A DNA stretch of 64,000 nt from an uncultured Nitrososphaerota archaeon (GTDB lineage Archaea; Thermoproteota; Nitrososphaeria; Nitrososphaerales; Nitrosopumilaceae): assembly GCA_963824385.1 (NCBI GenBank), contig CAWGPD010000001.1:160001-224000 (forward strand), given 5' to 3'. Below, piece by piece: positions 51,124 to 58,137 of this stretch. The notes under the pieces are model-generated. The model worked only from the letters and a program-made list of their open reading frames with translations, searched no databases and had not been told where the DNA came from. The translations under genes and the position numbers were made by a program. Position 1 is the first letter of the stretch; the number at the start of each line of letters is the position of its first letter.

Positions 51124-52008
51124 TTATGTCCTATTGTTCACAAACTTTTGGTTTGGATGATATGCTACACCTGCAAACTGTTGGTTTGGATGATATGCTA
51201 CACCTGCAAACTGTTGGTTTGGATGATATGCTACACCTGCAAACTGTTGGTTTGGATGATATGCTACACCTGCAAACTGTTGGTTTGGATGATATGCTAC
51301 ACCTGCAAACTGTTGGTTTGGATGATATGCTACACCTGCAAACTGTTGGTTTGGATGATATGCTACACCTGCAAACTGTTGGTTTGGATGATATGCTACA
51401 CCTGCAAACTGTCGGTGCATGTAGGATGTCATGTCTACAAATCTATGGTCTGTACGCAATGTCATGTCTACAAACTTTTGGTGCATATATGATGTCATGT
51501 CGACAAATCTATGAGGTCCAGAAGTTCCAGAGTATGGAGTAGGTGTTACAGAGTTATTCGGTGTCGAATATACTGGTGCTGAATTAACTGGTGTTGTGTA
51601 AGTATTGTCTGGTGTTGAGTTAACTGGTGTTGTGTTAGTATTGTCTGGTGCCGAATTAACTGGTGTTGTGTTAGTATTGTCTGGTGTTGAGTTAACTGGT
51701 GTTGTGTTAGTATTGTCTGGTGCCGAATTAACTGGTGTTGTGTTAGTATTGTCTGGTGTTGAACTTACAGATGTTGTGTTAGTATTGCTTGGTGCTGAGG
51801 ACGTAAAATTGTTTAATGTACCATTTGCTAACAATGATGTTGAATTGTTTAGCGTTGCATTTATTGGCAATGTGATTACAGATGTCCCATTGCTTTGAAC
51901 ATTGCTTACCTGGGCAAACGCACTGGTTGTTGCAAATGATGCAGTCATTACAACTCCAAGAATTGCCACTAGTGACAAGATTTGGAGTTTGTTTACGTTT
52001 GGGTTCAT
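51124..52008 (-). CDS. Secreted low-complexity repeat protein
   Basis: Signal peptide ending SAFA; N/T/S/P repeats; FVDMT x3; FAGVAYHPNQ x8. Confidence 0.85.
   Translation of the reverse strand: MNPNVNKLQILSLVAILGVVMTASFATTSAFAQVSNVQSNGTSVITLPINATLNNSTSLLANGTLNNFTSSAPSNTNTTSVSSTPDNTNTTPVNSAPDNTNTTPVNSTPDNTNTTPVNSAPDNTNTTPVNSTPDNTYTTPVNSAPVYSTPNNSVTPTPYSGTSGPHRFVDMTSYMHQKFVDMTLRTDHRFVDMTSYMHRQFAGVAYHPNQQFAGVAYHPNQQFAGVAYHPNQQFAGVAYHPNQQFAGVAYHPNQQFAGVAYHPNQQFAGVAYHPNQQFAGVAYHPNQKFVNNRT
51149..51412. repeat. Perfect 33-bp tandem repeat x8 (coding)
   Basis: TGGTTTGGATGATATGCTACACCTGCAAACTGT repeated with no spacers. Confidence 0.97.
51575..51796. repeat. 36-bp imperfect tandem repeat x~6 (coding, (A/T)PDNTNTTPVNS)
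   Basis: TTAACTGGTGTTGTGTTAGTATTGTCTGGTG core with alternating variants. Confidence 0.9.
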
Positions 52009-52236: not shown

Positions 52237-52437
52237 ATGCATTTTAAGAAAATTCATCTTGTCTTGGCATTATTAATTCTAATACCCTCATTTGTAAACT
52301 TGGGAGTTCCTATTTACAATAGAGATTCTCCAGAATTATTTGGACTGTCATTTTTCTACTGGTTTCAGACATTTTGGTTATTTGCCTGCACCGGTTTCTA
52401 TTTTGCGTATGCTAAACTGATGGAGAAAAAAGTATGA
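52237..52437 (+). CDS. DUF3311 small membrane partner of the SSS transporter
   Basis: YNR-x2[13 protein letters not shown]; overlaps the symporter start (ATGA). Confidence 0.85.
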
Positions 52438-53930
52438 TAAATTCTGACGTAATCCTAGTATTTGTTTCATTATTTATTGTCTTTATCGGATTAGGATTTT
52501 ACGGCAAGTACTGGAGAAAAGGGGATCTCAATCATGTACATGAGTGGTCTTTGGGTGGAAGAAGACTTGGAACAACGCTTGTCTTTTTCCTCATTGGAGC
52601 AGATTTGTATACAGCATATAGTTTTGTGGCAATCCCATCAGGAGTATTTGCAAAAGGTTCACTATACTTTTTTGCAATTCCTTATGTGATGTTAACTTTT
52701 GCAGTTGCACTAGTCACAATGCCAAAACTTTGGACACTCTCCAGAGAAAAGGGATACATCACAGCTTCAGATTTTGTAAAAGACAGGTTCAGTAGCAAAA
52801 CACTAGCCATAATGATTGCAATTACAGGAATTGTTGCAGAGCTTCCGTATATTGCATTACAGATAGTGGGAATGCAAGCAGTACTAACTGTAATGCTTGC
52901 AGGATATGCAAATTCTCAGATGGTTACAGAGATCTCACTTCTTATTGCTTTTGTAATTCTAGCAGCTTTTACATATTCAAGTGGATTGCGTGGTGCAACT
53001 CTGACTGCAATTTTCAAGGATATTTTAGTGTGGATAACAGTGATTGCAGTAATAATTGCAGTTCCAATAAGTATAGGAGGATTTGGAAATGCATTCAAGG
53101 CCTCCAAGGACAATTATGTTACACTACCAGATAATCTAGTTCCTGCATATGCAACCTTGATTTTAGGTAGTGCATTGGCGCTATACCTGTACCCCCATGC
53201 AATAACAGGAGTATTGAGTGCTCAAAGTGTCCAAAAGCTTCGCTCAAGTACAGCACTTTTACCTCTGTATGGAGTTGGATTGGCAATACTAGCATTGATG
53301 GGAATACTTGTGTATGCAGTTCCAGGAGCTATGCACTTTTTGTCAGGATTTCCTGAAAGTTCGCGTGGTATACTAGTTGTTCCTTCATTGATATTGTATT
53401 CATTACCAGGTTGGTTTTCAGGAATTGCACTGCTTGGAATTTTTGTTGCAGGTCTTGTACCTGCCGCAATCATGGCTATGGCACAAGCAAATCTCTTGAC
53501 TCGAAATATAATCAAAGAGATAAAACCAAATCTTTCAAGCAAATCTGAGATTAGAATAACAAAGATGTCATCAACTGTCTTCAAGTTCATAGCTCTTGCA
53601 TTTGTGTTTTCAGTTCCTGCAACATATGCAATATCATTGCAGTTACTTGGAGGCATACTAATTATTCAGATACTACCTGCAGTATTTTTTGGATTATATG
53701 TTAAATCACTTGGAAAGATTCCGGTGATTTTAGGTCTGATTGCCGGAATATTTTCTGGCATATACATGCTAGAGGCTGTAAATAGTTTCGGTCAATTGAC
53801 ATCATCGCTTTTTAAAACTACTTTTGGTCCAATATACATCGCAGTAATCGCACTTGCAATCAATCTGACAATATCATTTGTTGGCAGTGCAGTATTACGC
53901 AGACGTGCAATTAAAAATCAAACAGATTAA
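52434..53930 (+). CDS. Sodium:solute symporter (MctP-like)
   Basis: [28 protein letters not shown] and YLYPH motifs; many TM segments. Confidence 0.92.
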
Positions 53931-53965
53931 TCAAAATATAATAAAAGATAGTAAGTGGTTTACGA

Positions 53966-54526
53966 CTACTCGTATTCCATCAGTTTCTTTTCTTCTAAGA
54001 GTGTGTGAAGATTGTGCACTGCACGATAAACTTCTGCTTCTTTTTTAGTTCCAGTACAGACTAGTTTTCCAGAAGCAAAGATAAGAACTACGGAGCGCGG
54101 ATCAAGCATTCTGTGTATAAGACCAGGAAATTGTTCTGGTTCATACATACTTCTTGGAAGACTTCTTGCTGCCTTTTCCAAGTGAACTTTACCGCCAAGA
54201 CTAACAGACGCCACAATATTTTGAATTGTAATTTCTGGATTCTTTTTTATTTTTATCTTGCCTTTTCTTAGTCTTTGTACTACAGTGTTTACTGCATTTA
54301 CCGCAGCTTCCTCAGATTTGGAACCAGTACAGACCATTTTGCCTGAGCTGAAGATCAATGTTGCAGTTTTTGGAGATTTTAATCTAAAAACTAGACCTGG
54401 GAATTGTTCAGGATGATATTCTACGTCTGGGAATTCTTTTGTGATTGCTACAAGATCAATTTTTTGGTCAACTGATGCAGAGGCTACTACGTTTACAATG
54501 TCAACAATCGGTTTTGTTTGAGGCAT
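53966..54526 (-). CDS. tbp: TATA-binding protein
   Basis: Two NVVAS/NIVAS...Y-x-PEQFPGL...LIF-x-SGK-x-VCTG repeats. Confidence 0.98.
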   Translation of the reverse strand: MPQTKPIVDIVNVVASASVDQKIDLVAITKEFPDVEYHPEQFPGLVFRLKSPKTATLIFSSGKMVCTGSKSEEAAVNAVNTVVQRLRKGKIKIKKNPEITIQNIVASVSLGGKVHLEKAARSLPRSMYEPEQFPGLIHRMLDPRSVVLIFASGKLVCTGTKKEAEVYRAVHNLHTLLEEKKLMEYE

Positions 54527-56634: not shown

Positions 56635-57150
56635 GTGAAGAAGCGATTCTATCTTTTTCTCCCAATCTATTTTAGCTTCTTTGTAGTTCTTGGAGTCTAC
56701 GAAGTAATCCATCCTCCGTTTAGTACAGATTCAACAAGGATTGGAAATTATGAGATAAAAATAGAAACTACACCGCCAGTTCCAGAGACAGGAAAAGATA
56801 CTCTAATTCACTTTCTAGTTCTTGATGAGAACGGAAGACCCGTTGATAATTTTAGGATGGGAATTCAGATTTTTTATAATGACAATTTAGAAAGTTCATT
56901 TCCACCTGCTGACCATAATGCAGGAAGATATGACTTGAATTACATATTTGGCGAATCTGGAAATCATGTAATCAGAGTTGATCTTTTTGATCTTAACAGT
57001 GACCAGGTGTTATCACATGCATTCAATGTTGGCGTGTTAAACTTTTACATGAACGTGTTCATCTATCTAGTAATAGCAGGAGTAGCAGGAGCTGCAGGCA
57101 TCGTTATTGCAATAATAATTTATCAGAGAAAAATTAGTAAGACAAGGTAA
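56635..57150 (+). CDS. Membrane protein with extracellular Ig-like domain
   Basis: N- and C-terminal TM helices; PP-x-P..G and F-x2-SG-x-H pattern. Confidence 0.65.
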   Translation: MKKRFYLFLPIYFSFFVVLGVYEVIHPPFSTDSTRIGNYEIKIETTPPVPETGKDTLIHFLVLDENGRPVDNFRMGIQIFYNDNLESSFPPADHNAGRYDLNYIFGESGNHVIRVDLFDLNSDQVLSHAFNVGVLNFYMNVFIYLVIAGVAGAAGIVIAIIIYQRKISKTR

Positions 57151-57291
57151 AAGATGTGTGGCATGGCCCTATTGACAGAATGCTTGGAGATTACCTCCGT
57201 TGAATCAGACGCCATTGCGTGGATTCGTGTAAGATTTCTGCCGGACCATGCATCGTCAAGCCATTGATGACTTTACGATCACAGCCATCTT
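57151..57291 (-). ncRNA. Candidate structured ncRNA of unknown family
   Basis: Six nested helices, G-U wobbles only on the minus strand, TATA-like TTAAATAA at 57310-03. Confidence 0.65.
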
Positions 57292-57382
57292 ATCATTACA
57301 AGTTATTTAAGAACGTGTATCAACAAACACACAAACCTACAATATAAATAAAAATCAGATCACAGAGTTTTTTTAAGAATAA

Positions 57383-57577
57383 TTATTCAAGCAGGTTCCA
57401 GAATCTAGAATAACGAAATAGTCCTACCCAGCCAGATATGAAACACGCAAGAGACAAACAAAATAACAGGTAAAAGCCCCTCTTGCTTTTTGCAATATCA
57501 AGGTCTAAGAAGATAAATGTGCCCATTCCTATTAAACCAAAAAAAAGTATCAGTCGGCCTAATCTTTTTAGATTCAA
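57383..57577 (-). CDS. Small two-TM membrane protein
   Basis: Two hydrophobic helices. Confidence 0.5.
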   Translation of the reverse strand: MNLKRLGRLILFFGLIGMGTFIFLDLDIAKSKRGFYLLFCLSLACFISGWVGLFRYSRFWNLLE

Positions 57578-57669
57578 TTATTGACACAACCAAGACGGCC
57601 AGATATAAAACAGATCTAGTGGTATAATTTCCCAGTCAAGATGAATTTTTCAAATCACTGGTGAGAAGA

Positions 57670-58137
57670 TCATACCAGTCCGCATTTTTCATAATACTGT
57701 TGGTGATAATCTTCTGCCTTGTAAAATTCTGTTGCTGGAACTATCTCAGTTACAATTTTTTTGCCATATTTTCCAGATTTTTCAAGTTCATCTCTTGACT
57801 GTCGTGCCTCTCTTTCCTGTTCAGGAGTGTGGAAAAAGATTGCAGACCTGTATTGCTTTCCAACATCTGGTCCTTGTCTGTTCAGTGTAGTAGGATCATG
57901 GTTATTCCAAAATATATCTAAAAGTTTACCATATGATATAATCGAGGAGTCATATTCTACTTGGATAACTTCTGCATGCCCTGTTGTATCAGTACAGACA
58001 TCCTCATAAGTGGGATTTTTAAGATGGCCTCCCATGTAACCTACACTTGTAGATATTACGCCATTTTTTCTAAAGTCATTTTCAATACACCAAAAACATC
58101 CTGCGCCAAATGTAGCTTTCAACATATATGATATCAT
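57670..58137 (-). CDS. msrA: Peptide methionine sulfoxide reductase A
   Basis: GAGCFWC, GHAEV, RQGPDVG-x-QYRS and AEDYHQQY motifs. Confidence 0.97.

Follow-up and report, generated by a model that had tools for sequence, protein, structure and literature searches.

The intergenic DNA at positions 57151–57291 of the window (the whole 64,000-nt stretch of an archaeon of the Nitrosopumilaceae that was analysed) raises the question of whether it encodes an RNA and, if so, of what kind. An earlier note on this DNA had proposed a stable, multi-branched, purely noncoding RNA of about 140 nt on the minus strand, transcribed from its own promoter, closed by a terminal stem P1 and lacking a credible open reading frame (ORF). 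The stand-alone structured minus-strand RNA has held up, together with its own conserved TATA promoter, covarying homologues and a family absent from Rfam; its extent and its coding content had to be revised.

The element and its parts

Folding of the minus strand of 57151–57291 yields a minimum free energy (MFE) of −53.6 kcal/mol (z −5.17), a stability equalled by none of 200 shuffled sequences; the plus strand folds more weakly (z −2.5). All helices named earlier are present in the minus-strand MFE fold, and the proposed orientation is favoured both by folding (z −5.17 versus −2.5) and by the tail of an RNA contig (see below). The TATA-like box is found as well (TTAAATA at 57310–57304), as is the U-run after the 3′ end (U4 at 57152–57149). 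The closing stem P1 (AAGAUG/CAUCUU), however, is not conserved but peculiar to this genome: among 26 subfamily members, the window copy and one other reach a flank helix of 6 bp and the other 24 have 2–5 bp; further, the 5′ strand of P1 (57291–57286) lies upstream of the expected start site. The short CUU/AAG helix forms in the MFE fold here, but in the alignments, read by eye, it is not family-wide. Because P1 is not conserved, an ORF sits at the 5′ hairpin and CUU/AAG is not general, the probable RNA comprises about 57282–57160 (123 nt) plus a U-rich tail, rather than 141 nt closed by P1; we infer that transcription starts at or within about 2 nt of 57282. The parts, and the neighbouring genes, are as follows.

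57304–57310, minus strand: TATA box TTAAATA, directly preceded by an A-rich, BRE-like stretch (position and conservation in homologues)
57256–57282, minus strand: leaderless micro-ORF, GUG start, 8 codons (MIVKSSMA), UGA stop (family-wide position)
57252–57279, minus strand: hairpin H1, comprising the ORF, its stop codon and a 4-nt spacer (fold; covariation within the genus)
57243–57251, minus strand: 5′ strand of core stem P2, 4 nt after the stop codon (97% of cells paired)
57160–57169, minus strand: 3′ strand of core stem P2, with a terminal unpaired C (the same in all 81 sequences of alignment A4)
57174–57242, minus strand: stem P3 (57242–57236 with 57180–57174), separated from P2 by an asymmetric internal loop; it closes a three-way junction (96% paired)
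57202–57226, minus strand: junction hairpin PA, structure kept, sequence and length variable (covariation, mutual information)
57186–57198, minus strand: junction hairpin PB, RGAG-G(N3)U-CUCY, stem nearly invariant, 5-nt loop (alignments)
57141–57159, minus strand: 3′ tail with the U4 run (57152–57149), overlapping the last 10 nt of the convergent gene including its stop codon
56635–57150, plus strand: convergent neighbour outside the element, 171-aa protein with hydrophobic ends (ORF)
57670–58137, minus strand: upstream neighbour outside the element, about 390 nt away, peptide methionine sulfoxide reductase (ORF and match)

The 171-aa protein has a weak YtkA-like match below the Pfam cut-off, and its gene is the same convergent neighbour throughout the subfamily of the window copy. 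Elsewhere in the window, 51124–52008 (minus strand) encodes a low-complexity protein of 294 aa with a likely signal peptide, about five N/T/P/S-rich repeats of 11 residues and about nine 11-residue repeats of the type QQFAGVAYHPN; these repeats also open long frames on the other strand. At 52237–54526, what we take to be genes for a small membrane protein and a 498-aa sodium:solute symporter-like protein (plus strand) converge on a presumed TATA-binding-protein-like gene (minus strand).

Range and copies of the family

By blastn the element is single-copy in this genome and occurs in 20 of the 24 genomes searched within its genus and in 0 of 16 from other families. A first covariance model found it in 20 of 23 genomes of the Nitrosopumilaceae-level family and in 0 of 127 genomes from other families of the order. 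With an improved model (R2, built on 81 sequences), one to four copies were detected in 12 of 12 family genomes and in this genome; 17 other-family genomes gave two weak matches only (G025 and G029; E 0.14 and 0.22), due to chance on inspection, and a further weak match outside the family was seen in G031 (E 0.86). In a phylum-wide draw with stricter filters, all 20 Nitrosopumilaceae-level genomes were positive, again with one to four copies each, as opposed to 0 of 130 other genomes of the phylum, where absence means absence within the reach of the model.

A pattern describing the core only, applied to named genomes, retrieved at least 119 loci; titles among the matches listed include Nitrosopumilus, Nitrosarchaeum, Nitrosotenuis, Nitrosotalea, Cenarchaeum and unclassified relatives, plus one chance match in Actinoplanes. 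Two records titled Nitrososphaeraceae and Bathyarchaeota (L078 and L084) carry a Nitrosopumilus-type copy with identical 5′ modules; probably the titles or bins of these records are off. Viruses gave no match to the core pattern, and 12 viral matches to a promoter-ORF pattern were dismissed: none was scored by R2, and most lie inside or across unrelated coding regions.

In a tree, the window copy groups with records named Nitrosotalea. This genome (G000) has three copies: that of the window, L052 (G000:C2:198795–198927, plus strand) and L177 (G000:C2:189546–189676, minus strand), the latter two in divergent orientation with about 9 kb between them. L177 represents a second subtype, found in other genera too, in which the asymmetric loop sits on the 5′ side and the PB hairpin differs; by blastn, 39 of 40 genus genomes match it, a few only via a short shared part. 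In one draft genome (G322) all three matches (L267, L270 and L272) are at contig ends; assemblies may break at these elements, in which case copies are undercounted. In L260 (1527–1662) and L097 (977–1112) the 5′ module of one paralogue type stands on a core that groups with another, suggesting from sequence comparison that 5′ modules may be exchanged between paralogues.

Sequences from unpublished genomes are included in alignments A1–A5 (L010 from G012, L023 from G019), in the list of subtype B (L190, L200) and in the tallies (G011, G012, G019, G178, G184); no conclusion depends on them. As related members are not independent, all family counts overstate the number of independent events.

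A conserved three-way-junction core

Downstream of the 5′ hairpin lies a core of 85–101 nt, in which a 9-bp P2 joins the ends and is followed by the asymmetric loop, a P3 of 5–7 bp and a three-way junction with PA and PB. Its mean energy is −38 kcal/mol and, folded alone, it is self-contained (z −5.6). Covariation was assessed in alignment A5, 100 sequences picked for diversity and aligned to R2, that is, an alignment fitted to the structure. There, 92.7% of cells pair and 24 of 30 pairs have two-sided changes, to which neither 500 shuffles nor six slid controls came near; alignments made from sequence only agree with the structure-fitted one on covariation. P2 is paired in 97% of cells, with two-sided changes in 7 of 9 pairs, and the opening base pairs of this stem show the highest conservation in the RNA; P3 is 96% paired (6 of 7 pairs with two-sided changes) and contains an A-U pair invariant in 100 of 100 sequences. 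PA is among the pairs of highest mutual information, 13 of the top 14 of which are nested pairs of the core; a pseudoknot or other pairing off this structure does not stand out in that ranking. In one member (L235:1527–1667) the sequence of the PB stem is wholly different, yet a 4-bp stem and a 5-nt loop starting with G are kept.

A leaderless micro-ORF in front of the core

The 5′ third of the RNA was the part for which a coding function had been denied. This turned out to be wrong: a GUG-initiated frame of eight codons ending in UGA (57282–57256) occupies the 5′ hairpin, at a position that is conserved throughout the family. Likewise, a purely noncoding RNA closed by P1 is unsupported: within the 5′ third nothing is better conserved than the leaderless frame of 8–10 codons, which stops right in front of the core. 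The 5′ hairpin of the first alignment consisted of a start codon plus nine codons plus a stop; compared to the usual nine codons, the window copy has an in-frame deletion of 3 nt.

The frame was tested blindly in loci found by the core alone; of the at least 119 loci, three with a short upstream region and one duplicate were left out, giving 115. Among the matches listed, 108 of 115 have a frame starting with AUG or GUG whose stop lies 3–5 nt before P2 (nine codons in 102 of these listed loci and eight in 6); 1,000 shuffles gave 1.7 such loci on average and 7 at most. The seven exceptions among the matches listed are four loci with an eight-codon frame starting at UUG (codon 2), two with ten codons, the stop of both being directly against P2, and the chance match in Actinoplanes.

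The distance from the first T of the box to the start codon is 28–29 nt in 82 of 88 cases among the matches listed. For long ORFs of this genome, the spacing between this box and the first ATG peaks at 28–31 (32 cases), and because the two spacings are equal the micro-ORF is taken to be leaderless. A pattern of box, AUG, 24 free bases, T-purine-purine and GCG occurs in 85 of 89 family genomes and in 5 of 211 others; its reversed control gave four matches. None of the five non-family matches has a core: this applies to G031, G084 and G332, and those in G275 and G292 resemble, by eye, the 5′ end of a tRNA.

An in-frame stop codon 0–5 nt before P2 is present in 100 of 100 sequences of alignment A5, and in 98 it is 3–5 nt away; L058 and L105, two related copies, have it at 0 nt. 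UAA (58), UGA (26) and UAG (16) are all used, and stop identity has switched at least 23 times on a tree of the core only, which is poorly resolved and makes the number approximate. The first base of the stop codon is unchanged among all nine-codon rows, and length changes of the micro-ORF preserve the reading frame. The +1 frame contains stops in 55 of 76 distinct ORFs and the reading frame none, but the latter was chosen for being open; the weight of the ORF evidence therefore rests on the blind test, since an open frame was a criterion of selection.

Some copies deviate. The frame is missing from L008, which has a 1-nt deletion and an intact core, and from the degenerate L015. L269 (G307:C1:696132–696260) is A+T-eroded, has lost the reading frame and most of the fold, and is apparently a decaying paralogue. 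L214 (G082:C1:1325006–1325135), the only copy found in its genome, is G+C-rich and divergent, with a longer and stronger 5′ hairpin, no AUG and no stop before the core; it is the clearest exception to the rule. In a clade of five (L048, L090, L115, L116 and L124) AUG is replaced by ACA, ACU or GCU, and all five have UUG at codon 2. L117 has GUG at codon 2, at the cost of one hairpin pair, which looks like a replacement start.

Compared with base shuffles, the ORF region folds as a hairpin (z below −1.5) in 134 of 142 distinct members, the latter being what is left of 164 loci examined after removal of 9 unparsed and 13 duplicate ones. The sequence of H1 is lineage-specific, and its energy is −7.2 ± 1.5 kcal/mol. 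In 114 of 142 members it begins at nt 3–5, which should hinder leaderless initiation.

The peptide, by contrast with its frame, appears to be under no purifying selection, judging from the substitutions: of 108 single-base changes separating close neighbours, 22 are synonymous (20% versus 22.4% expected), and changes fall on all three codon positions (49/62/43). Amino acid changes follow the pairing of the hairpin, and paralogues of one genome encode unrelated peptides. Positions 8 and 9 take few residues, mostly I/M/N/T and D/A/K/E, respectively.

Genomic context and a candidate transcript

Downstream DNA was sufficient for 106 members. A convergent gene faces 82 of these, 64 of which end within 40 nt of its stop codon; 22 stand before unrelated co-directional genes and 2 have no gene downstream. 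Neighbouring genes differ between subfamilies, and no partner gene travels with the RNA. The mostly convergent context and the varied neighbours argue that it is not the leader of a given gene but a stand-alone unit. A frame that would result from read-through is not conserved: the combined length of spacer and core falls in all three frames (39/65/38 members), and the next in-frame stop past that of the micro-ORF is scattered (2 to >37 codons). A scan for bacterial promoters and terminators performed at chance level, the method being unsuited to archaea.

One public RNA run, a peat metatranscriptome, contains the stretch, in a single contig of 151 nt (depth 2.7) that covers only this RNA. The contig is identical over 57141–57269 and continues at 57141 with 22 letters, which on the minus strand read as 16 A, 3 G, 2 U and 1 C and have no match of more than 15 letters in the genome (86% complete); the tail is apparently non-templated. 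Tails added by archaeal exosomes are heteropolymeric, with about 73% A, according to the accessible part of the source (PMC7667871), and this genome has two adjacent RNase PH genes. We infer a tailed transcript of the minus strand from this single contig, in which, as in contigs generally, strand and ends are invisible and which may also be a library artefact or a chimera. No RNA contigs cover the flanking genes in the peat run, which is not evidence of relative expression.

Comparison with known RNAs

The Rfam comparison proposed earlier matched no known family: Rfam 15 at gathering score gave 0 matches in the window, with only matches of E 3–9.5 within 56900–57700, and the element in eight homologous loci had no match either. 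That the RNA is not a tRNA agrees with ARAGORN, which reported 0 tRNA or tmRNA genes in the window. A miniature inverted-repeat element (MITE) does not fit, the copies being few and diverged (one per genome by blastn, one to four by model), the flank helix unconserved and target-site repeats absent (no junction repeat in 141 of 142).

Some likeness exists to tmRNA, a stable RNA that is both structural and coding, with a frame of about ten codons in a hairpin. tmRNA has a tRNA-like domain and a resume codon without a start codon; here, in contrast, the frame has its own AUG (or GUG) at the 5′ end, the peptide is unconserved, there is neither a tRNA-like domain nor a pseudoknot, no T arm is found by the terminal stem, and ARAGORN and Rfam are negative, so on these features tmRNA was rejected. 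A tRNA-like 3′ CCA end was discarded, too, as the base after the terminal CC is U in 71, A in 43, C in 26 and G in 2 of 142 members, and a T arm is missing.

Leader-peptide attenuators and upstream ORFs also have a short hairpin ORF whose translation matters rather than its product, and some attenuator RNAs act in trans. The corresponding feature, a short predicted translated frame upstream of a structure, is present here; but most loci have no regulated downstream gene (82 of 106 being convergent), sensing codons or an arrest peptide were not found, and a conserved, tertiary-looking core distinguishes the RNA from attenuators. A read-through or frameshift signal is not supported, there being no conserved open frame beyond the stop. 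Dual-function small RNAs share the own promoter, the small ORF and the RNA part; here, however, the peptide lacks purifying selection (22 of 108 changes synonymous, 22.4% expected), and neither a conserved single-stranded seed nor a long antisense target was found. Conserved bases of the RNA are nearly all paired, and the best non-self match of the three copies in this genome had E 0.15, no better than chance, in a search whose reach ends above short imperfect seeds; as two rRNA motifs had no match in the assembly, the antisense search covered sequence other than rRNA.

Y RNAs and stem-bulge RNAs likewise have ends paired in a long terminal stem, an asymmetric internal loop and a U-rich tail. 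Here, however, the stem has no bulged C, Rfam gave no match and an ORF stands in front; Ro60/TROVE proteins gave 0 matches in this genome (86% complete), with 2 of 14 control genomes positive. C/D and H/ACA guide RNAs were set aside because no C/D or ACA boxes, K-turn or K-loop, or two-sided pocket could be seen by eye among the conserved columns, and Rfam gave no match at its gathering score. The architecture fits no family that was tested.

A ribosome-engaging mini-mRNA?

Taken together, the kept start, frame and stop and the free peptide argue strongly that the frame is translated, and that it is very probably the act of translation rather than the peptide that is selected. What this act might achieve is less certain. 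The reading we prefer, with a probability of roughly 0.4, is that the RNA is a leaderless mini-mRNA that would bring a ribosome to the stop codon just as the core comes to lie at the mRNA entry; there the ribosome may be paused or held. Comparison of the members shows the order of parts: a TATA promoter, a leaderless start, 8–10 codons in a moderately stable hairpin, a stop and, 3–5 nt on, the stable core. A ribosome would load on the 5′ AUG, then melt H1 and reach the core just when the stop codon enters the A site; the core might dock at the entry channel or swing into the A site and delay release or recycling, leaving the ribosome paused or parked. The role might be storage, buffering or a checkpoint, exerted by an RNA instead of a hibernation protein.

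The geometry is compatible with this: when the P site holds the last sense codon and the A site the stop, the start of P2 lies at +10 to +12 in 98 of 100 sequences, also in eight-codon forms such as that of the window. Since this is the position of the mRNA entry, the core would be met as the stop enters the A site. Pausing stem-loops, such as the frameshift-stimulating hairpins of E. coli dnaX and HIV, similarly place a stable helix about the mRNA entry relative to the P-site codon; the accessible part of a study of them gives an optimal helix position 11–12 nt downstream, for E. coli ribosomes and for binding of tRNA rather than of a release factor (PMC7282821). This optimum is 1–2 nt further out than most spacers here allow, and the archaeal channel may differ. 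In contrast to the stem-loops covered there, a stop would occupy the A site, the structure is a 90-nt three-way junction, a slippery site and a downstream frame are missing, and the gene stands alone. The no-spacer members L058 and L105 indicate that the distance between stop and P2 is not absolute; the spacing could also arise simply from a compact 5′ module having to stop short of the core.

A more specific form of the proposal, possible but tentative, is that the Nitrosopumilaceae carry dedicated RNA factors for ribosome parking, in which a nine-codon frame and a three-way-junction domain would hold the ribosome prior to release or recycling. With the archaeal hibernation proteins Dri, Sri and HibA, as far as the accessible part of their description goes, such factors would share only the proposed role of idling ribosomes; those are proteins, and an RNA of that putative role would be a different type of factor (PMC13454478). 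The same source attributes mostly divergent SriC-short forms to the Nitrosopumilaceae's order, the Nitrososphaerales. An anti-correlation with HPF/HibA-type proteins was uninformative, as PF02482 is sporadic (3 of 27 inside versus 8 of 93 outside the family).

All evidence of translation without peptide selection would also suit a somewhat unlikely alternative, a translation-gated switch: passing or terminating ribosomes would melt H1 and the top of P2, thereby setting the stability of the RNA or the exposure of the core to a protein partner, and the RNA would report translational capacity (energy status), serving as a sponge or scaffold in trans. In its favour, the ORF occupies a hairpin whose stability varies little (−7.2 ± 1.5 kcal/mol), the least variable pairs lie where a ribosome at termination would make contact, the unchanging stem bases of P3 and PB hint at contacts with a protein or within the tertiary structure, and an A-rich tail fits turnover by the exosome. 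Folding lends no support to an alternative state, however: pairing of the start codon with the 5′ strand of P2 exceeds a probability of 0.5 in 12% of nascent sequences and falls to about 0 at full length; the mutual-information ranking contains no alternative pairing, and no partner gene co-travels. The self-contained and very stable core (z −5.6 alone), the seemingly exchangeable 5′ modules of L260 and L097 and the fact that the ORF always ends before the core would also be compatible with the core as an independent RNP or catalytic domain, for which the micro-ORF merely recruits ribosomes for 5′ shielding or RNA localisation. This is unlikely, as it does not by itself explain the 3–5 nt spacer and the near-constant nine codons, and stable archaeal RNAs normally need no ORF.

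That the RNA is simply a tiny mRNA, its nine-residue peptide being the product and the core a stabilising or translation-enhancing 3′ UTR, is quite improbable: start, frame and stop are kept and positions 8 and 9 are restricted, but the synonymous fraction (20% versus 22% expected), changes at all codon positions, residue changes that follow H1 pairing and the unrelated peptides of same-genome paralogues speak against a selected product. Still less probable is a purely noncoding RNA in which AUG and stop would be preserved as motifs of the promoter or of the structure. A start site should in any case carry a purine, the ORF region is a hairpin, and the clade of five did swap AUG for ACA, ACU or GCU, but each of its members has UUG at codon 2; moreover, the stop switches solely among the three stop codons, and stops interrupt the +1 frame in 55 of 76 ORFs and the reading frame in none. 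Just as improbable as a noncoding RNA is a cis element or mobile repeat, be it a leader or attenuator, a 3′ element of the convergent gene or an RNA antisense to it, or a MITE: in 64 of 106 members the 3′ end is no more than 40 nt from a convergent stop codon, 22 of 106 are followed by a co-directional gene and copy number varies from one to four, but neighbours vary by subfamily, the RNA has its own promoter, the copies are few, diverged and syntenic, 141 of 142 lack a direct repeat of ≥3 nt at their ends, and folding and tail favour the minus strand.

Prior descriptions and significance

In the literature covered, which includes few subscription papers, no description of the RNA family, its structure or its micro-ORF was found; the loci may have been noticed. 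The 2010 genome paper on N. maritimus by Walker and colleagues reportedly lists conserved intergenic RNA candidates with promoters, which may include these loci. Table S6 of PMC5069720, in the part accessible, contains a 114-nt “hypothetical ncRNA” with a mapped start site on a marine thaumarchaeal fosmid (KF901103); compared by size only, it is close to the family. The “conserved noncoding RNA” of PMC3043068, as given in the accessible part of that paper, is RNase P RNA and was dismissed.

As judged from genome sequences, there is a real, family-wide, multi-copy structured RNA with a conserved, predicted leaderless micro-ORF and a neutral peptide, and its features suggest an undescribed kind of RNA that may work by ribosome engagement. 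We rate it as new in architecture, namely a stand-alone transcript whose sole frame is kept for its position, not its product, before a folded domain; the mechanism is the conjectural part.

The ammonia-oxidising Nitrosopumilaceae (Nitrosopumilus, Nitrosarchaeum, Nitrosotenuis, Nitrosotalea and Cenarchaeum) account for much of marine, freshwater and acid-soil nitrification, and their streamlined genomes retain up to four copies of this RNA. Standard annotation misses it, as it belongs to no Rfam family and cannot be called as a gene; the covariance model now provides a family-specific marker. If the RNA acts as a switch, it would be a new sensor of translational capacity. If it is true that it holds ribosomes, it would represent a new way to manage translation under energy limitation, and, should parking be its role, an RNA equivalent of hibernation proteins in microbes that are short of energy and among the most abundant on Earth.
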